Source of the DNA: Dehalococcoidia bacterium
Lineage (GTDB): Bacteria > Chloroflexota > Dehalococcoidia > Lucifugimonadales > UBA3495
Direction: 5' to 3'
DNA length: 64,000 bases
Assembly (NCBI GenBank): GCA_963422765.1
Contig: OY730490.1
Location: forward strand, 2,453,211 to 2,517,210
The translations under genes and the position numbers were made by a program. Shown here piece by piece: positions 2,106 through 32,282 of this stretch. The notes below the pieces were generated by a model. That model saw only the letters and a list, made by a program, of their open reading frames with translations, did not search any database and had not been told where the DNA came from. The first letter of the stretch is position 1, and every line of letters starts with the position of its first letter.

Positions 2106-3569
2106 ATGACCACCCCCAGGGTCATTTCCCGGGACACCACCTCCACCGAACTGGACTCCGACTACAAGTGGGGTTTCACCATAGACATAGGGTCCGATCT
2201 GGCCCCCAAGGGGCTCAGCGAGGATGTCGTGCGCCTCATCTCGGCCAAGAAGGAAGAGCCGGAGTGGATGCTGGAATGGCGGCTCAAGGCGTTCCGGCAC
2301 TGGGTGCGGCTTCAGTATCAGGAACCGGAGTGGGCCAACATCCACCACGCCCCCATTGACTATCAGGACATCTACTACTACGCCGCCCCTTCCAGCAAGG
2401 AAGCTCCCAAGAGCCTCGACGAAGTGGACCCGGAGGTGCTGGAAGCCTTCGAGAAGCTGGGCATCCCCCTCCAGGAGCGGGAGCGTCTGGCCGGCGTGGC
2501 CGTGGACGCAGTGCTGGACAGCGTGTCCGTCGCCACCACCTACCAGGATATGCTGGAAAAGGAAGGCATCATCTTCTGCTCGATGAGCGAAGCGGTGAAG
2601 AATCACCCAGAGCTGATTCAGAAATATCTCGGCTCCGTGGTTCCTTACACCGACAACTTTTTCGCCACCCTCAACTCGGCGGTGTTCAGCGACGGCTCCT
2701 TCGCCTACATCCCCAAGGGCGTGCGCTGCCCCATTGAGCTGATGACCTACTTCCGCATCAACCAAGCCGACTCCGGCCAGTTCGAGCGGACACTGATCGT
2801 CTGCGAGGAAGGCGCCTACGTTAGCTATCTCGAAGGCTGCACCGCCCCGGCCCGCAAGTCCCACCAGCTTCACGCCGCGGTGGTGGAACTGGTGGCGCTG
2901 GACGACGCCGAGATCAAGTATTCCACGCTTCAGAACTGGTTCCCCGGCGACAAGGACGGCAATGGCGGCGTCTACAATTTCGTCACCAAGCGCGGGCTGG
3001 CCGGCGGGCGCAACTCCAAGATTTCCTGGACGCAGGTGGAGACCGGCTCGGCCATCACCTGGAAGTATCCCAGCGTCATACTGAAGGGCGACAACTCCAC
3101 CGGCGAGTTCTACTCGGTGGCGCTGGTCAACCGCTACCAACAGGCCGACACCGGCACCAAGATGATTCACCAAGGCAAGAACACCAAGAGCACCATCGTA
3201 GCCAAGGGCATATCCGCCGGACAAGGCAACGCCACCTACCGCGGGCTGGTCAAGATGATGCCCACGGCGGACGGCGCCAAGAACTTCACCCAGTGCGATT
3301 CGCTGCTCATCGGCGACCAGTGCGGCGCCCATACCGTCCCCTACATCGAGGTCAAGAACCCCACGGCCCAGCTTGAACACGAGGCTTCCACCTCCAAAGT
3401 AAGTGACGACCAGCTCTTCTACTGCCAGCAGCGGGGGATGTCCGTCGAAGACGCCCACTTTATGATAGTCAACGGCTTCTGCCGCGGCATCTTCCAGGAA
3501 CTCCCCTTCGAGTTCGCCATGGAGGCGTCACAGTTGCTGAAGGTCAGCCTCGAAGGAGCCGTGGGGTAA
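2106..3569 (+). CDS. sufB: Fe-S cluster assembly protein SufB
   Basis: Typical SufB sequence ([18 protein letters not shown]-terminal [18 protein letters not shown]). ATG at 2106 is preceded by AAGGAGA. The tracked 1965 start runs through the promoter. Confidence 0.93.
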
Positions 3570-3581
3570 TTAGGTCAACAG

Positions 3582-3615
3582 CCCCTCTCCCAAGGGGAGA
3601 GGGGCAGGGGGAGGG
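3582..3615. repeat. REP-like hairpin element
   Basis: CCCCTCTCC-caag-GGGAGAGGGG followed by CAGGGGGAGGG. It belongs to the family listed in the findings and sits between the sufB stop and the next gene. Confidence 0.6.
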
Positions 3616-3624
3616 CGTTCTATC

Positions 3625-4017
3625 GTGTTACGCGCCTACCGCAGCAATGTAGATAATGACGGCACCATTCGGTTGCCGGCAGACGTGAACTTGCCGCCGG
3701 ACAGTGAGGTTCTAGTAGTTGTGCTGAACGAGCCTCAAGCTGAGGCTGGCGAGAATGTCCAACCTGCCCCATATTACCAACATCAGCGATGCCTCTGTGG
3801 TTGTGGCAATGAAAACAATCCTGGCTCCCGCTTCAGGCAAGGCCACGATATGAGAGTGAGAGCTGCCCTTCTCCGTGCAGAGAACGGGATTCTCACCCCT
3901 GACGATAATGAGTGTGTTCGCACACTCAGAGGCGCTGCGCAGAGAGACCATAGTTTGGTAATACACGAATTCACCGCCCCGAGGATCCTCGAACTCTTGA
4001 ATGGCGCGGCGGAGTAG
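3625..4017 (+). CDS. DUF104-like (AF2212-type antitoxin-like) N-terminal domain fused to a Cys-rich C-terminal extension
   Basis: N-terminus DNDGTIRLPADVNLPPDSEVLVVVL matches the DUF104 pattern. The C-terminus carries CLCGCG..RFRQGHD. GTG start. Composition looks lower in G+C than the flanking suf genes. Confidence 0.55.
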   Translation: MLRAYRSNVDNDGTIRLPADVNLPPDSEVLVVVLNEPQAEAGENVQPAPYYQHQRCLCGCGNENNPGSRFRQGHDMRVRAALLRAENGILTPDDNECVRTLRGAAQRDHSLVIHEFTAPRILELLNGAAE

Positions 4018-10657: not shown

Positions 10658-11317
10658 ATGAAGCTCTTTCTCGACACGGCCAACCTCGACGAAATCCGCG
10701 ACGGCGCCCGTCTCGGCGTGGTCAGCGGCGTCACCACCAACCCCTCCCTGGCCGCTTCCGCCGGCATCGGCGACCGCGAAGCCTACCGTTCCGCCGTCGC
10801 CGAAATCGCCGCGCTCATCCGCGGCCCCATCTCCGTCGAGGTGGTCTCCACCGACGCCCAGGGCATGGTGGAAGAGGGACGCGACATCGCCAACTGGATT
10901 CCCGACCCGTGGGTCAAAATTCCCAGCACCATCGAAGGCATCGAAGCCATCGCCGCCCTGGCGTCCGAGGGCATCCGCGTCAACCAGACGCTCTGCTTCT
11001 CCGTCAACCAGGCCCTGCTCGGCGCTCAGGCCGGCGCCACCGTTGTCAGCCCTTTCATCGGCCGGCTCGACGACATCGGCCACGACGGCATCGCCCTCAT
11101 CCGCGACATCGCCGGCCTCTTCCGCGAGGCCGCCGTGGATACCCAGGTAATGGCCGCCAGCGTCCGCCACCCCCTGCACTGCATCAAGGCAGCCCAGGCC
11201 GGCGCGCACATCGCCACCGTGCCCTACAAGACACTGCTCCAGATGGCCCAGCACCCCCTGACCGACGCCGGCCTAGCCCGCTTCATCGCCGACTGGCGAA
11301 AGGCGAGCCAAGAGTAG
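10658..11317 (+). CDS. tal: Transaldolase / fructose-6-phosphate aldolase family (short type)
   Basis: MKLFLDTANLDEIR, GVTTNPSL and KIPST are typical of the family. The ATG at 10658 avoids translating the REP elements. Confidence 0.88.
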   Translation: MKLFLDTANLDEIRDGARLGVVSGVTTNPSLAASAGIGDREAYRSAVAEIAALIRGPISVEVVSTDAQGMVEEGRDIANWIPDPWVKIPSTIEGIEAIAALASEGIRVNQTLCFSVNQALLGAQAGATVVSPFIGRLDDIGHDGIALIRDIAGLFREAAVDTQVMAASVRHPLHCIKAAQAGAHIATVPYKTLLQMAQHPLTDAGLARFIADWRKASQE

Positions 11318-11454
11318 CAACGCCCTTAGCTCTACCCCGAAGCGGGCCGGAACTGCCAAACCACCCCGGCGCGGGCCAGCGGGCGCCCCTCTGCGCCAAA
11401 CCTCCCCCGCGCGGGAACGAATATGTTAGACGAACCAGAAATAATGAGGTGACC

Positions 11455-12768
11455 ATGACGGCAACCCGCAAGACTTTGGACGTAGTGGAGTTGGGCGGCA
11501 AGTCCAAGGAAGAACTGTTGAGCCTGGCCCCCGCCGTCGGTCTCGGCGACGCCGCGGCCCTGGACAAGATGCACCGCGAGGACATCCTCGGCCGTCTGTT
11601 CCAAGCCGCTTCCGCCAGCCAGTCCCTCGTCTCCACCGGCATCCTCGAGATAATGGACGAAGGCTATGGCTTCCTCCGCCAGTTTGCCTCCTACCGGCAC
11701 TCCGGCGACGTCTACATCTCCCAGTCCCAAATCCGGCGCTTCGGCCTGCGCACCGGCGACACCGTCACCGGCCAGGTGCGCCCGCCCAAAGAAGGCGAGC
11801 GCTACTTCGGACTGGTCCGCGTCGAGAAAATCAATAACTTCGACGCCAGTGACCCCTCCAGCAGGATTCACGGCCGCAGCCGCCCCGTTTTCGAGCACCT
11901 GACCCCGGTCTTCCCCGAACAGCAGGTGGTTCTCGAAACCTCGTCCAGCGAGCTCTCCACCCGCATGGTAGACCTCTTCGCCCCCATCGGCCTCGGACAG
12001 CGCGGCCTCATCGTCTCCCCACCCAAGGCCGGCAAGACCACTATGTTAAAGCAGATTGCCCACGGAGTCGTCACCAACTGCCCCGAGGCCCTCCTGATGG
12101 TCGCCCTCATCGGCGAGCGCCCCGAGGAAGTAACCGATATGCGCCGCTCCGTAGACGGCGACGTCTTTGCCTCCACCTTCGACGAATCGGTGGAAGAGCA
12201 ATGCCGCGTGGCCGAACTCTGCCTCGACCGCGCCAAGCGCCTCGTCGAGCTGGGCAAGGACGTCGTCATCCTGCTCGACAGTATCACCAGGCTCACCCGC
12301 GCCTACAACTTGGCCGTGCCCACCAGCGGGCGCACCCTCTCCGGCGGCATTGACCCCCTGGCCCTCTATCCCCCCAAGAAGTTCTTCGGCGCCGCCCGCA
12401 ACATCGAAGAGGGCGGCTCCCTCACCATCATCGCCACCTGCCTGGTCGACACCGGCTCCCGTATGGACGAGGTCATCTACGAGGAGTTCAAGGGCACCGG
12501 CAATATGGAGCTTCACCTAGACCGCAAGCTGGCCGAGCGCCGCTACTTCCCAGCCATAGACATCGTGCGCTCCGGCACCCGCCGAGAAGAACTCCTCTAC
12601 TCCCCAGAAGCCCACAAGCAAGTCGTCCTGCTCCGGCGTATGATCGGTATGCTCTCCAACAACGGCGACGGCGCCAGCGCCACCGAGCGCGTTCTGGAGC
12701 GCCTCTCCAAGACCCCCACCAACCACGAATTTCTGCGCACTCTCTCCGCCGCCGCCAGCCCCGCCTAG
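11455..12768 (+). CDS. rho: Transcription termination factor Rho
   Basis: [14 protein letters not shown], Walker [18 protein letters not shown] and [12 protein letters not shown] at 11455 follows GAGGTGA. The tracked 10909 start overlaps tal. Confidence 0.93.
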
Positions 12769-12860: not shown

Positions 12861-13196
12861 ATGGAAGAACGCATAGACCGGCTGGAAAACCTTATGGCGG
12901 CGTCAGTTCAGTTGTCCGAAATTATGCTCCGAAATCAGGATCAAATGCGTCGGAACTATCGCCACCTCCAAGAGAACAACCGGCGCAACGAAGAGAACAA
13001 CCGGCGCAACGAAGAGAACAACCGGCGCAACGAAGAGAACAACCGGCGCAACGAAGAGAACTGGCAACGCATCGAGGAAAACAACCGGCTCATGGAAGAG
13101 AGCCAAGAGGAAATCAGATACCTCTTGCAGCGGCTAACCCAGGCGGTGGCCGTAATGCAGGCGGAAATCGTGCGCATTGACGAAACCCACGCTTAG
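12861..13196 (+). CDS. Coiled-coil microprotein, cassette 1 (111 aa, the divergent member)
   Basis: MEERIDRLENL..., four NRRNEEN heptads, and the shared C-module EESQEEIRYLLQRLTQAVAVMQAEIVRIDETHA. RBS GAGGGA. Confidence 0.7.
   Translation: MEERIDRLENLMAASVQLSEIMLRNQDQMRRNYRHLQENNRRNEENNRRNEENNRRNEENNRRNEENWQRIEENNRLMEESQEEIRYLLQRLTQAVAVMQAEIVRIDETHA
12978..13061 (+). repeat. Four perfect 21-nt tandem repeats inside cassette 1
   Basis: AACCGGCGCAACGAAGAGAAC x4 with no mismatch, encoding (NRRNEEN)4. Confidence 0.95.
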
Positions 13197-13277
13197 CGAA
13201 AATCTCACCCAGACCATCAAGGCCAGCCTGCCGAACCATTCTCGCTCAGGAGCGGAATCGAACCGGGAGAAATCAAA

Positions 13278-13529
13278 ATGGAAGAACGCATAGACCGCTT
13301 GGAAAGCCTGCTTGAAGCGTCAGTCCTGCTGGCCGAAACTATGCAACGGAATCATGACCGTATGCGTGAGAACCAGCGGCGCAACGAAGAGAACTGGCAA
13401 CGCATCGAGGAAAACAACCGGCTCATGGAAGAGAGCCAAGAGGAAATCAGAGACCTCTTGCAACGGCTGACCCAGGCGGTGGCCGTAATGCAGGCGGAAA
13501 TCGTGCGCATTGACGAAACCCACGCCTAG
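13278..13529 (+). CDS. Coiled-coil microprotein, cassette 2 (83 aa, minimal form)
   Basis: Same N- and C-modules with the shortest central segment. RBS GGGAGA. Confidence 0.7.
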   Translation: MEERIDRLESLLEASVLLAETMQRNHDRMRENQRRNEENWQRIEENNRLMEESQEEIRDLLQRLTQAVAVMQAEIVRIDETHA

Positions 13530-13608
13530 CCAATCTCACCCAGACCATCAAGGCCAGCCTGCCGAACCATACTCGCTCAGGAGCGGAATCGAACCGGGGG
13601 AAATCACG

Positions 13609-13980
13609 ATGGAAGAACGCATAGACCGCTTGGAAAGCCTGCTTGAAGCGTCAGTCCTGCTGGCTGAAACTATGCAACGGAATCATGACCGTATGCGTGA
13701 GAACCACCGGCGCAACGAAGAGAACTGGCAAGATTATCAGCGGCGCAACGAAGAGAGGTGGCAGGATTACCAGCGGCGCAACGAAGAGAACAACCGGCTC
13801 AACGAAGAGAGGTGGCAGGATTACCAACAACGCAACGAAGAGAACAACCGGCTCAACGAGGAAAACAACCGGCTCATCGAAGAGAGCCAAGAGGAAATCA
13901 GAGACCTCCTGCAACGGCTAACCCAAGCGGTGGCCGTAATGCAGGCGGAAATCGTGCGCATTGACGAAACCCACGCCTAG
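13609..13980 (+). CDS. Coiled-coil microprotein, cassette 3 (123 aa)
   Basis: Starts at MEERIDRLESLL. The central part holds three WQDYQ(R/Q)RNEE(N/R) 11-mers plus NRLNEE(N/R) 7-mers. The tracked TTG start at 13510 lies inside cassette 2. Confidence 0.7.
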   Translation: MEERIDRLESLLEASVLLAETMQRNHDRMRENHRRNEENWQDYQRRNEERWQDYQRRNEENNRLNEERWQDYQQRNEENNRLNEENNRLIEESQEEIRDLLQRLTQAVAVMQAEIVRIDETHA

Positions 13981-14062
13981 CGAAAATCTCACCCAGACCA
14001 TCAAGGCCAGCCTGGCCGAACCATACTCGCTCAGGAACGGAATCGAACCGGGAGAAATCAAA

Positions 14063-14368
14063 ATGGAAGAACGCATAGACCGCTTGGAAAGCCTGCTTGA
14101 AGCGTCAGTCCTGCTGGCTGAAACTATGCAACGGAATCATGACCGTATGCGTGAGAACCACCGGCGCAACGAAGAAAACTGGCGGCTCATGGAAGAGAGA
14201 TGGCAGGATTATCAGCGGCGCAACGAAGAAAACAACCGGCGCAACGAAGAAAACTGGCGGCTCATGGAAGAGAGCCAAGACGAAATCAGAGACCTCTTGC
14301 AACGGCTAACCCAGGCGGTGGCCGTAATGCAGGCGGAAATCGTGCGCATTGACGAAACCCACGCCTAG
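14063..14368 (+). CDS. Coiled-coil microprotein, cassette 4 (101 aa)
   Basis: Starts at MEERIDRLESLL. Relative to cassette 2 the central part gains one 11-mer and one 7-mer. The tracked TTG start at 13961 lies inside cassette 3. Confidence 0.7.
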   Translation: MEERIDRLESLLEASVLLAETMQRNHDRMRENHRRNEENWRLMEERWQDYQRRNEENNRRNEENWRLMEESQDEIRDLLQRLTQAVAVMQAEIVRIDETHA

Positions 14369-14449
14369 CGAAAATCTCACCCAGACCATCAAGGCCAGCC
14401 CGCCGAACCATACTCGCTCAGGAACGGAATCGAACCGGGAGAAATCACG

Positions 14450-14734
14450 ATGGAAGAACGCATAGACCGCTTGGAAAGCCTGCTTGAAGCGTCAGTCCTG
14501 CTGGCCGAAACTATGCAACGGAATCATGACCGTATGCGTGAGAACCACCGGCGCAACGAAGAAAACTGGCAGGATTATCAGCGGCGCAACGAAGAGAACA
14601 ACCGGCGCAACGAAGAAAACTGGCGGCTCATCGAAGAGAGTCAAGAGGAAATCAGAGACCTCTTGCAACGGCTGACCCAGGCGGTGGCCGTAATGCAGGC
14701 GGAAATCGTGCGCATTGACGAAATCCACGCCTGA
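14450..14734 (+). CDS. Coiled-coil microprotein, cassette 5 (94 aa)
   Basis: Same N- and C-modules, one extra 11-mer relative to cassette 2. It is the only cassette ending in TGA rather than TAG. Confidence 0.7.
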   Translation: MEERIDRLESLLEASVLLAETMQRNHDRMRENHRRNEENWQDYQRRNEENNRRNEENWRLIEESQEEIRDLLQRLTQAVAVMQAEIVRIDEIHA

Positions 14735-28180: not shown

Positions 28181-28264
28181 AACCGTTTCCTAACCGGGCA
28201 TACTTGCGTCGCAACGGGCGGGACGCTAAACTGTGGGCATCCTGAATTCCTCGGAGGACATAGC

Positions 28265-28549
28265 ATGGAAGGGAAAGTCCAAATTGAGATTACCTACTGC
28301 GTCAGTTGACAGCACTTGGGAACTGCCACGTGGATGGCAAACGAGTTTTTCCGTCATTTCGGCCCCGATGCAGCAGTAGCAATCTCCCCTCGCGGCCAGA
28401 GCATCATGGAGGTGTTCGTGGACGGCGAGCGCATCTTCGATAAGAAGGGCGAAGGCAACGTCTTCCCCGACTTGGGCCGCGTCCGCAAGATGCTGGCTCA
28501 TGTCCGCGAGAAAATCGCCGAGGCAGACCTGGTAGCAGCCGACGACTAG
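28265..28549 (+). CDS. SelW/SelT/SelH (Rdx) family selenoprotein with in-frame TGA (Sec) at 28307-28309
   Basis: ATG at 28265 follows GGAGGA. Translation is MEGKVQIEITYCVS-U-QHLGTATWMANEF...VFVDGERIFDKK..G.FP. This matches the bacterial Rdx pattern (V.IEYC..C.W..A.W.A.E...VDG..I..K) with U at the second redox position. The tracked ORF (TTG at 28316) would remove the redox motif. Confidence 0.7.
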
Positions 28550-28586: not shown

Positions 28587-28627
28587 AATAGATAAGCCCC
28601 TCCGTTAAACGGAGGGGCTTATCTATT
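28587..28627. terminator. 41-nt perfect palindrome, bidirectional terminator between convergent genes
   Basis: AATAGATAAGCCCCTCCGTT-a-AACGGAGGGGCTTATCTATT. It overlaps the tmk stop codon (28623-28625). Confidence 0.65.
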
Positions 28628-29450: not shown

Positions 29451-30476
29451 CTAAGGGAGTTGTCCTTCACGAAGGGGCGCTATGACTTCTTCCCCGAAGC
29501 GGCGAATGATGCGCTCGGGGTCGGGGCCGATAGCGGTTATCAGCAAGGCGTCCACCCCGGCGTTGAAGATGGCGCGAGACTTGGCTCGGCATTCCTGGGG
29601 CGTTCCGGCTACGGCGAAACGGTCGGCGAAATAGTCGGTGAGTCCAAGTTCATCGGTTAGGGTGGCGTTGCGGGTTTGGCCCACCTGCTCGTGTTCGGCG
29701 GCTTCATATTCGCGGTGCAGGATGGATACCGGCTCACGCAATTCCTCCGGCACGTTCTTGCCTTCGAGGGTAAACCGGAAGGCATGGTGGCCGGAAGCGG
29801 CCAGGGCCATCTTGATTTCCTTTATGGCGTCGTCGCGGTTGTCGGCAATGTTGCACTTGGCGAAGGCCCAGACGCCGGTTGCGCCCTCCTCGCGTCCGGC
29901 GGCGCGCTCACCCTCGCGAATGCGGGCGACAGTGTCGGTCAGCACTTCCTGGGTCAGGCCAGTATGGATGATGGCGGCATCGGCGTCGGCCCCGGCCATT
30001 GCCAAAGTGCGCGGCCCCTCAGCAGACATTGCGACGGGTATAGCGGCGTTGGCCCAACGCACATGGGCCCGGTCGCCCCGGTACTCGCTGGTTTCTCCGG
30101 CCAGCATTTCCCGGACGGTCTGGATGTAGTGATGCAGCTCCGACAGCCGGGCCGGACGCAGCCCCAGGTTCAGCACCGCGCTATCGCCGCTGCCGACGCC
30201 CAAGAAGGCCCGTCCGCCGGAAAGCTCGTTGACCGACGCAATGGCCGACGCCGTTACCGCCGGGTGGCGTGTGAGCGGGTTGCTGACCGTTGGCCCCAGC
30301 ATAACCCTATCCGTGGACATTGCCACCACGCTCAGGGCAACATACAACTCGCGGGCCAATGATTGAGAGTCGGCTATACCCACATAGTCGAAGCCCATCT
30401 CCTCGGCCAGCCGAGCTCGTTTTGCCAGAACCTCAAGGCTGTCGGGAAGCATCGTAACGCCGAACTTCATTGCCAA
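29451..30476 (-). CDS. LLM-class (luciferase-like) flavin/F420-dependent oxidoreductase
   Basis: MKFGV..., FDYVGIADSQ, LGPTVSNPLTRHPAVTASAIASV and FLGVGSGDS are typical of the methylene-H4MPT reductase-like family. Confidence 0.8.
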   Translation of the reverse strand: MAMKFGVTMLPDSLEVLAKRARLAEEMGFDYVGIADSQSLARELYVALSVVAMSTDRVMLGPTVSNPLTRHPAVTASAIASVNELSGGRAFLGVGSGDSAVLNLGLRPARLSELHHYIQTVREMLAGETSEYRGDRAHVRWANAAIPVAMSAEGPRTLAMAGADADAAIIHTGLTQEVLTDTVARIREGERAAGREEGATGVWAFAKCNIADNRDDAIKEIKMALAASGHHAFRFTLEGKNVPEELREPVSILHREYEAAEHEQVGQTRNATLTDELGLTDYFADRFAVAGTPQECRAKSRAIFNAGVDALLITAIGPDPERIIRRFGEEVIAPLREGQLP

Positions 30477-30952
30477 CGGCCTCTGAATGTAGCGGCGCTT
30501 ACAACGCTGAAAATGTCCTCACCGTTACGGAATTTTTGGAAAAGCTGGAGGTTCAAGACCCCATCGGGGTAATTGGTACGTTCTTGTATCATTACTAGCT
30601 CAATGACCACCAGCAGGAACTCAGGGCTGTACTCGCTGACGCCGTTCAACTCTTCAAATTGACTGATGTACGCTGTTTTGAATACCTGCAAACTTGGCGG
30701 GTAAGAGGTTGAGGGAACTACGGGCATGATGATGTTGTTTATGATGTGGTCAGCGAAATCGTTTGTCAGTCCGGGCTCTGCACCTCGTTTCTGATAAAGG
30801 TCAACAATGAGGTGGATATGCTGAGGAGTTCTGATTCGCTTGTCAGGTTCTCTGTATCGCACAAGAAAGTCGTGCTGCGATTTCTTGCCGGTTTCCGTGT
30901 AAATCTCGGTGCTGCCAGATGTTCGGTAAATCAATGTCTGCTGAGATGGCAT
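30467..30952 (-). CDS. Hypothetical protein, candidate cognate restriction endonuclease of the adjacent methyltransferase
   Basis: 161 aa with no motif I can name. It lies immediately downstream of the MTase in the same orientation, looks clearly AT-richer than the flanks, and its 3' end overlaps the LLM gene start by 10 nt. Confidence 0.3.
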   Translation of the reverse strand: MPSQQTLIYRTSGSTEIYTETGKKSQHDFLVRYREPDKRIRTPQHIHLIVDLYQKRGAEPGLTNDFADHIINNIIMPVVPSTSYPPSLQVFKTAYISQFEELNGVSEYSPEFLLVVIELVMIQERTNYPDGVLNLQLFQKFRNGEDIFSVVSAATFRGRWQ

Positions 30953-31012
30953 TCAGTACGCCCCCTTGGAGAGGATTGGGGGCGTTTAGCGTAAGCTATC
31001 TTGCTTTCACGA

Positions 31013-31915
31013 TCAATCTTTTAGCGTTTTTGACACGGCTTGATACTCGCGGCTTGTATCAAACAAACGCCGTTGATTTGTGTCTACAGTTTTCGCACCC
31101 GGCAACTGTACCACTGATTCAGCAAAACGGTCTGAGACACTGGACAACCTATCAGCGCCAATGCGAGCATAGTTCCACTCAACATCGCAGCCGATGAACC
31201 TGCGGTTGAGGGACAATGCGGCTAGGCCGGTGGAGGCACTGCCGGCGAAAGGGTCAAATACCAAGTCGCCGGGGTTCGTGCTGGCTCTCAGGCAACGGCC
31301 TATCAATGCGATCGGCTTCTGCGTGGGATGCTTGCCAAAAGTCTTTTCGTCGCGGCCGGCGGCTGGAAAGCGCCAGACGGATTTCATTTGCTTACCGCCG
31401 TTTTCGGCCTTCATTTCCTGGTAGTGGAAAGTGTATTTGTGCCTGCTGCCTTTCGGCGCTTTAGTAGCCCACAGGATGGTCTCGGTGGAGTGGGCGAAAC
31501 AGCGGCAACCCAAATTGGGTGGTGGGTTGTTCTTCTCCCATATGATGTCGTTCAGGATGCGAAACCCGAGCTGCATCATTGCCATCCCGACGCTCAGATA
31601 GATATGCAGAGTTCCCGTGACCCAGATGGTACCGGCCGGTTTCAGAATCCGGTGGCACTCGCGCAGCCAAGCAAGGTTGAACTCGTGGTCATTTTCAATC
31701 CCGTCACTACGGTCCCACTCACCCTTGTTGACGCTGACCCGCTTGCCGGCAACGCAGGTCACGCCGTCGTTCGATAGCAGATAGGGCGGGTCACTCCAAA
31801 TGCAGTCCACACTGTCGGACGGCATACTGGCCATCAGGGATAGACCGTCGCCGCAGTACAGGGCGGACTGTTCATCCGCGGATTGCCAAACCAACTGCGG
31901 GCTATCGGTCATCAT
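31013..31915 (-). CDS. Beta-class N6-adenine (or N4-cytosine) DNA methyltransferase
   Basis: Motif IV (IWSDPPYLL) precedes motif I (FDPFAGSASTGLAALSLNRRFIGCDVE), which is the order seen in beta-class (permuted) enzymes. Start is taken at MMTDS; the tracked start is 31966. Confidence 0.85.
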   Translation of the reverse strand: MMTDSPQLVWQSADEQSALYCGDGLSLMASMPSDSVDCIWSDPPYLLSNDGVTCVAGKRVSVNKGEWDRSDGIENDHEFNLAWLRECHRILKPAGTIWVTGTLHIYLSVGMAMMQLGFRILNDIIWEKNNPPPNLGCRCFAHSTETILWATKAPKGSRHKYTFHYQEMKAENGGKQMKSVWRFPAAGRDEKTFGKHPTQKPIALIGRCLRASTNPGDLVFDPFAGSASTGLAALSLNRRFIGCDVEWNYARIGADRLSSVSDRFAESVVQLPGAKTVDTNQRRLFDTSREYQAVSKTLKD

Positions 31916-32282
31916 GCGATTGTCCTTCCTGCCTGAGTCGATAAACGGCAATTGCCCGAATTGCATCCAGAATAACCTGACCTTCCGGGGTATTTTTGAG
32001 GTCTTCTATGGCATCCTCCGCTATCATCTGCTCAAATTCTTTCAGGTCTCGCAACAGCCATGGAGCTGGTTCGGCTCCTCTGATTGCTCCGTCAACTGCC
32101 TCGCGGAATTCCAAGAACTGGGTTGCGTCGTCCGTTACCAGATAATAGGACTCGTTCTCCTCCCACTCATCGGGAATAGCAAGCCCGAAGTTTCTCTCTA
32201 CCAAGGCAACTACCAAATCCGACACCGATTCCCGTGAAGGATAGGATAATATCGGTTCCCACTGTCGTACTGGCCTAGCCAT
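31902..32282 (-). CDS. Acidic hypothetical protein, first gene of the R-M-like island
   Basis: 126 aa and rich in D/E. Its 3' end overlaps the MTase start. No HTH is recognisable. Confidence 0.45.
   Translation of the reverse strand: MARPVRQWEPILSYPSRESVSDLVVALVERNFGLAIPDEWEENESYYLVTDDATQFLEFREAVDGAIRGAEPAPWLLRDLKEFEQMIAEDAIEDLKNTPEGQVILDAIRAIAVYRLRQEGQSHDDR

Follow-up and report, generated by a model that had tools for sequence, protein, structure and literature searches.

A SelW-like (Rdx) gene of a Dehalococcoidia bacterium that very probably encodes selenocysteine at an in-frame TGA

The reading frame and its family

We studied a stretch of 64,000 nucleotides (hereafter the window) from a marine or sponge Dehalococcoidia bacterium and asked whether a TGA within one of its reading frames is a stop codon or a codon for selenocysteine (Sec). 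The gene in question starts at a TTG (28316) in a mechanical ORF list, which assigns it 77 aa. An initial annotation had pointed out that a GGAGGA ribosome-binding site and an ATG open the same frame farther upstream, with the TGA as sole interruption, and had proposed an overlooked selenoprotein of the SelW-like (Rdx) type. Ribosome-binding site, ATG, TGA and the TTG start of the ORF track were all read in the sequence as described: a single open frame runs on the plus strand from ATG 28265-28267 to TAG 28547-28549, broken by nothing but the TGA, and its read-through product is MEGKVQIEITYCVS-U-QHLGTATWMANEFF... (Table 1). The locus is very probably a genuine Sec-encoding SelW-like (Rdx) gene with the motif Cys12-Val-Ser-Sec15. 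On comparative sequence grounds we take as established its family membership, the alignment of the TGA with the redox Cys, the conservation of the TGA and of both coding flanks, and selection on the hairpin that follows (see below).

Table 1 Features of the Rdx locus in the window and TGA positions of the DsbA-like gene in related loci
Feature	Position	Strand	Basis
Shine-Dalgarno motif GGAGGA	28253..28258	+	direct reading; 6 nt before ATG 28265
Full SelW-like (Rdx) CDS, predicted selenoprotein, 94 codons including Sec15, plus TAG stop	28265..28549	+	translation, Pfam, structure matches
N-terminal 14 codons MEGKVQIEITYCVS, beta1 and first half of the redox motif, left out by ORF callers	28265..28306	+	conserved in 81/81
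Cys12 codon TGC, putative resolving Cys of the C-V-S-U motif	28298..28300	+	Cys in 81/81 orthologs
In-frame TGA, predicted to be read as Sec15	28307..28309	+	TGA in 81/81 orthologs; on second Cys of CxxC
Putative SECIS upper stem-loop: UGCCA 28324-28328, loop CGUGGA 28329-28334, UGGCA 28335-28339	28324..28339	+	pairing, covariation, bSECIS model
Possible lower helix, ACUUG...CGAGU in the window, CUCG...CGAG in most orthologs	28314..28346	+	44-nt fold, -9.1 kcal/mol
Perfect palindrome, 20-nt arms, 1-nt spacer, between convergent Rdx and tmk	28587..28627	.	
DsbA-like TGA in L053/L057/L062/L064/L065/L069/L076	rev-comp 3844/4351/3514/3526/4217/4337/4359	minus	

With the TGA read as Cys, the product matched the Pfam Rdx profile (PF10262, gathering cut-off 22.6 bits) with 50.8 bits over profile positions 1-68 of 74, while the ORF that starts at the TTG scored 28.3 bits by itself, from profile position 14 on. 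This difference in score, together with the coverage of the profile start, places the 14 upstream codons within the domain. Six solved bacterial Rdx structures were matched (2OKA, 2OBK, 2FA8, 2P0G, 2OJL and 3DEX; E = 7.5e-9 to 1.5e-6), and in the alignments ITYC-VS-[TGA]-QHL stood against ITYC-TQ-C-QWL in 2OKA and 2OBK, IRYC-TQ-C-NWL in 2FA8 and IYYC-RQ-C-NWM in 2P0G. In these four proteins the second Cys of CxxC falls on the TGA and the first on Cys12, so that reading through the TGA restores the CxxC/U redox motif of the family, as had been proposed. By homology to the six structures, the protein of the window presumably has a thioredoxin-like fold. Two NCBIfam SelW/T/H models were matched under their curated cut-offs, TIGR02174 (CXXU_selWTH) with 31.4 bits against 34.2 and NF041051 (SelTWH_Campy) with 35.7 bits against 88; the protein is thus an Rdx protein outside the Campylobacter equivalog and just below the cut-off of the CXXU_selWTH subfamily, and these sub-cut-off scores may be a reason why annotation pipelines leave the gene unflagged.

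Codon usage was gene-like on both sides of the TGA, with scores of 0.43 (the 14 upstream codons) and 0.49 (downstream) against a mean of 0.28 for the genes of the window. A scan of the 64-kb window returned the Rdx gene as the sole TGA-bridged ORF with this property, and no further TGA-bridged ORFs with coding potential. TGA serves as an ordinary stop elsewhere in the window, where it ends 12 of the 43 long ORFs, and recoding at the Rdx TGA would therefore be site-specific. The same count, with a G+C content of 61%, bears on the idea that TGA has been reassigned throughout the genome, as in genetic codes 4 or 25. Seven database entries of apparent full length (P0001-P0007) do show Trp at the Sec position (YCVPWQH), as such a reassignment would predict, but these entries come from short metagenome contigs, and where the DNA was checked (P0001, two contigs) it has TGA and reproduces the database protein under code 4 and no other. 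Reassignment is refuted for the window, and its probability is negligible.

The Rdx gene lies among chromosomal housekeeping genes (hrcA, pdxT, aroC and aroE, a luciferase-like oxidoreductase and a DNA methylase), with a gene for an R3H-domain ATPase directly upstream and, in 75 of the 80 related loci described below, a convergent tmk downstream. Downstream of the Rdx stop, each of the 81 sequences has a strong GC-rich hairpin (MFE <= -20 kcal/mol within 110 nt); these hairpins are of the AAGCCCCTCC...GGAGGGGCTT type, and a T-run stands behind them in several inspected loci. The palindrome of the window (Table 1) is probably a bidirectional terminator; a simple terminator scan made no call there, because the window copy has no T-run.

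Some other features of the window were recorded in passing. The methylase gene (30467-31966, minus strand; N6_N4_Mtase, 183 bits) adjoins an ORF of 161 aa that gave no Pfam match, both amid housekeeping genes, and may be an orphan methylase or a remnant of a restriction-modification system. A Rho-like ORF (10909-12768, plus strand) was recognised by eye from its RNA-binding and ATPase motifs and, if its GTG start is right, is extended at the N-terminus by about 180 residues rich in Arg, Pro and His. Behind it, a tandem array (12861-14734, plus strand) holds at least five paralogous small ORFs of 83-156 aa with a common N-terminus (MEERIDRLE.LL.ASV...) and C-terminus (...EESQEEIRDLLQRLTQAVAVMQAEIVRIDETHA), between which stands a variable number of repeats of the RRNEENN or WQDYQ type; the translations look coiled-coil.

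Conservation of the TGA and the database record

A genome scan that kept one genome per species gave 80 loci, all from MAGs of Dehalococcoidia, SAR202 or Chloroflexota, whose proteins are 72-99% identical to that of the window; with the window they form a set of 81 sequences. The TGA occupies the same codon in every one of them, and the upstream peptide MEGKVQ[IVL]EITYCVx-TGA is kept in all 80 genomic orthologs. Like the solved Rdx proteins, these orthologs align across the TGA and not just from the TTG onward. Variation upstream of the TGA is dominated by third codon positions (0.05/0.03/0.21 at positions 1/2/3); by this measure the 14 codons before the TGA change in the manner of coding sequence. 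One of the motifs GGAG, GAGG or AGGA lies within 22 nt before the ATG in 81/81 sequences, and conservation does not extend farther upstream.

An in-frame stop met in one sequence would ordinarily point to a pseudogene, here a former CxxC Rdx gene with a nonsense mutation. The comparative data refute this: the TGA keeps its codon in 81/81 sequences, among them orthologs with as little as 72% protein identity, purifying selection acts on both flanks, no frameshifts were seen, and Shine-Dalgarno motif and ATG are conserved. We give the pseudogene practically no weight.

Public databases present the gene in another form. A protein search found 348 homologs, and among the best 120 about 110 are fragments of 70-73 aa that begin at Met24 (MANEFF...), just after the motif, one of them filed at NCBI as 'Rdx family protein'. 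Such a common start just past the motif is the mark of a gene truncated at a common stop, and agrees with the earlier expectation that standard callers truncate this gene. One further homolog, P0037 from an ENA metagenome contig, starts with MCIRDS, which we take to be the translated Nextera mosaic-end adaptor ...ATGTGTATAAGAGACAG; this suggests adaptor contamination at the contig end and not a real N-terminus.

The database record could also be taken at its word: the TGA would be a true stop, the product a protein of 71-77 aa that begins at Met24 or at the TTG, with the 14 codons as a leader peptide or untranslated. Nearly all entries among those best 120 homologs are called in this way, and the shortened ORF still scores above the Pfam threshold. 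Against this, the shortened product would be without beta1 and without the CxxC/U motif that defines the family; Met24 has no Shine-Dalgarno motif in 79 of the 81 sequences, and the TTG occurs in just two. The 14 codons, moreover, match positions 1-13 of the Rdx profile and show coding-type selection in 81/81 sequences. A true stop is in our judgement highly improbable. The importance of the Sec-encoding gene is chiefly one of annotation hygiene: it and hundreds of orthologs are filed as 71-aa fragments that have lost the catalytic motif, or as code-4 mistranslations that show Trp at the Sec position.

The hairpin behind the TGA

The initial annotation had further singled out a small hairpin, with GU in its loop, as a possible part of a bacterial SECIS. 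Its sequence is as claimed: 14 nt separate the TGA from the stem, which begins at the 15th nt. A published bSECIS model (PMC13188914, Fig. 2 legend) calls for a loop of 3-9 nt with G in one of its first two positions, an upper stem of 4-16 bp, 16-37 nt between UGA and loop, and an MFE <= -7.5 kcal/mol. The element of the window has a loop of 6 nt (C-G-U-G-G-A, with G at loop position 2, then U), a stem of 5 bp, a spacing of 19 nt and -9.1 kcal/mol, and thus agrees with the model in every term.

Comparison of the orthologs gave this structure its main support. In 63 distinct sequences the five pairs of the upper stem are paired without exception; four of them are invariant, as is the whole loop, and the closing pair occurs as C-G (37), U-A (21) or G-C (5) and is broken in none. 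The corresponding counts in 79 unique longer sequences are 45, 28 and 6. The covariation score of the closing pair was reached by none of 500 column shuffles, and when the partner was slid by 1-3 columns the pairing fell from 94% to 11-43%. On a neighbour-joining tree built without the hairpin columns, the closing pair switched state at least seven times. The SECIS-like structure that had been proposed is therefore backed by covariation.

In the protein-coding frame, the two bases that covary occupy third codon positions, in Thr20 (ACN) and Ala25 (GCN). Twelve four-fold-degenerate codons have invariant first two bases; ten of these vary freely at the third (minor-allele fraction 0.20-0.65), and the only two that are fixed there, Ala21 (GCC) and Thr22 (ACG), both lie within the hairpin. 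Sixteen nucleotides thus appear to be under joint constraint as RNA structure and as protein, with the hairpin encoding T-A-T-W-M-A while its synonymous sites are frozen, a clean and well-sampled example of such a double load.

Covariation is confined to one of the five stem pairs, since the others do not vary; the evolutionary support for a SECIS structure in these alignments is, for that reason, real but narrow. The single-sequence fold was not better than shuffles (z = -0.8 to +0.4), so thermodynamics alone gives no evidence and the support for the hairpin is comparative; the consensus energy of -7.58 kcal/mol is barely past the threshold of -7.5. Flanking the upper stem, a lower helix is possible and weakly supported: 87% of its cells are paired across the orthologs with zero double changes, and it is absent from the RNAalifold prediction for the ortholog alignment. 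Rfam returned no match on 28240-28420 at E <= 10, and on the whole window at the gathering threshold it found two ordinary tRNAs and nothing else.

One metagenomic scaffold offers a natural control (L083; ENA ERZ23496271, scaffold_4787). It carries a tandem duplicate of the Rdx gene, at 3001-3489 and about 3570-3860. In the upstream copy TCC (Ser) replaces the TGA and the hairpin is destroyed (GCCGCCTGGCTGGC); in the downstream copy the TGA and an intact hairpin are both retained. It is a single case. The upstream copy is also joined to a second copy of a 3' piece of the R3H-ATPase gene.

With the Sec-encoding reading, expression of the gene would proceed as follows. Translation would start at ATG 28265 behind the Shine-Dalgarno motif. 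At the UGA, the mRNA hairpin, with its G-U apical loop 19 nt downstream, would act as a bacterial SECIS and recruit SelB-GTP-Sec-tRNA(Sec), so that Sec would be inserted in place of termination. Once mature, the protein presumably alternates between a selenol/thiol state and a selenenylsulfide joining Cys12 to Sec15, and would be a putative small thiol-dependent oxidoreductase with a thioredoxin-type fold.

The selenocysteine trait in the lineage and known systems

We searched for the Sec machinery in the window and in 80 loci of 20 kb (~10 kb on either side of the gene, ~1.6 Mb of flanks). ARAGORN found no tRNA-Sec in the window, in L001-L080 or in L083, and tblastn with E. coli SelA, SelB and SelD found no selA, selB or selD in the 64-kb window or the 80 loci. 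A weak SelD-like match in L077 was rejected: it is ThiL-like by sequence and adjoins a tsaE-like gene. Sec-machinery genes need not be linked to selenoprotein genes. We infer the presence of this machinery in the genome of the window, as we do SelB binding, Sec insertion and the redox chemistry outlined above.

Other evidence comes from the lineage. BSepDB, which requires a species to have two or more of SelA, SelB and SelD, ranks Dehalococcoidia bacterium UBA1141 seventh among the ten selenoprotein-richest genomes of more than 64,000 analysed, with 49 genes (PMC13326102). One of our 80 loci (L041) is a contig of the UBA1141 MAG and carries a TGA ortholog of the Rdx gene; the listing of its source as Sec-utilising supports, indirectly, a Sec trait in the lineage. 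The Rdx gene agrees in turn with a recent publication that places some Dehalococcoidia among the bacteria richest in selenoproteins.

These data also bear on the possibility that not Sec-tRNA but a near-cognate or suppressor tRNA, charged with Trp, Cys or Arg, decodes the UGA, the hairpin merely stimulating the read-through. The inserted residue is not identifiable from sequence alone, and no Sec machinery turned up in the window or the ~1.6 Mb of related flanks. The CA directly after the TGA is invariant in the orthologs, and with it the UGA-C context. A UGA-C context terminates weakly in E. coli. On the other side, the codon coincides exactly with a redox Cys, and Sec forms of this family are well documented; the hairpin matches the SelB-type bSECIS model down to the loop G-U; and the ortholog-bearing UBA1141 is the genome listed with a Sec pathway and its many selenoproteins. 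One base change, TGA to TGC or TGT, would also suffice to give Cys, and is seen in none of the 81 sequences. Read-through by another tRNA is thus very unlikely, and we retain Sec as the predicted residue.

When the window and the related loci (1.7 Mb) were compared all against all, in an unbiased scan for in-frame TGAs that are conserved, the Rdx cluster (81/81) and one other credible gene emerged; the remaining clusters were rejected as antisense-frame artefacts of real genes. This other gene, present in seven of the more distant genomes (Table 1), encodes a DsbA-family thioredoxin-fold protein of ~210 aa (PF01323, 57 bits) and reads MAESDFTVYYDFR-TGA-PFVYNAAMWW..., where the TGA opens the redox motif. 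A strong stem-loop follows (-18.4 kcal/mol, z = -2.4). The DsbA-like gene is a second candidate selenoprotein, outside the window, and indirectly supports a Sec trait in the lineage.

The apex of the DsbA-like stem-loop, GCCAUGUGGUGGGC, resembles the Rdx element GCCACGUGGAUGGC, and the two have a similar GCCAUGUGG core. Of the 103 copies of a 9-nt core, GCCAYGUGG, in the 1.7 Mb, 88 lie behind an Rdx or DsbA-like TGA. It is conceivable, though we would put it forward as a doubtful proposal, that the SAR202/Dehalococcoidia lineage uses a minimal sequence-specific SECIS core (GCCA-YGUGG-...GGC) common to the unrelated Rdx and DsbA-like genes. SelB of these bacteria would then recognise a short motif by its sequence and not a generic hairpin, and the motif could serve as a lineage-specific probe for selenoproteins missed by the generic bSECIS model.

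Several known systems can be set beside the gene of the window. The solved Rdx proteins of Cys type (2OKA, 2OBK, 2FA8, 2P0G, 2OJL and 3DEX) align with it over ~70-80 residues and share the pattern I-x-Y-C-x-x-C-x-W/L; they differ in having Cys (CxxC) at the position of the TGA, and their hosts are Proteobacteria and Actinobacteria. Mammalian SELENOW and its SelT/SelH relatives belong with the window gene to the Rdx superfamily and have a CxxU motif at the beta1-alpha1 junction in common with it, but the eukaryotic genes depend on a 3'-UTR SECIS with SBP2/eEFSec, whereas a SECIS in the coding region, of the bacterial SelB type, is predicted here. The SECIS of the E. coli fdhF type, or the bSECISearch consensus, is likewise a stem-loop just past the UGA with G-U in a small apical loop; compared with it, the upper stem of the window has only 5 bp, the lower helix is weak and variable, and the element gave no Rfam match.

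SelW-like CxxU proteins have been known as bacterial selenoproteins for two decades (Zhang, Gladyshev and co-workers). In the GOS marine metagenome no selenoprotein family was more abundant than the SelW-like one, which counted 427 Sec and 56 Cys forms and showed particular enrichment in marine samples, and few Cys homologs have been reported in Sec-using organisms. The novelty implied by the initial annotation was therefore overstated, and the Rdx gene leaves knowledge of selenoproteins and SECIS elements unchanged. The catalogued bacterial SelW-like proteins (PF10262, former pfam05169) and the window gene are alike in family, in their single domain of ~90 residues, in a CxxU motif with Sec in second place, in a coding-region SECIS, here predicted, right after the UGA, and in marine provenance. 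Nothing categorical sets the window gene apart from them; the Dehalococcoidia/SAR202 clade, with many sponge MAGs, is distinguished by its short, near-invariant putative SECIS core, GCCACGUGGAUGGC. The gene is an unannotated, truncated member of the known SelW-like family, in a lineage now known to be rich in selenoproteins.
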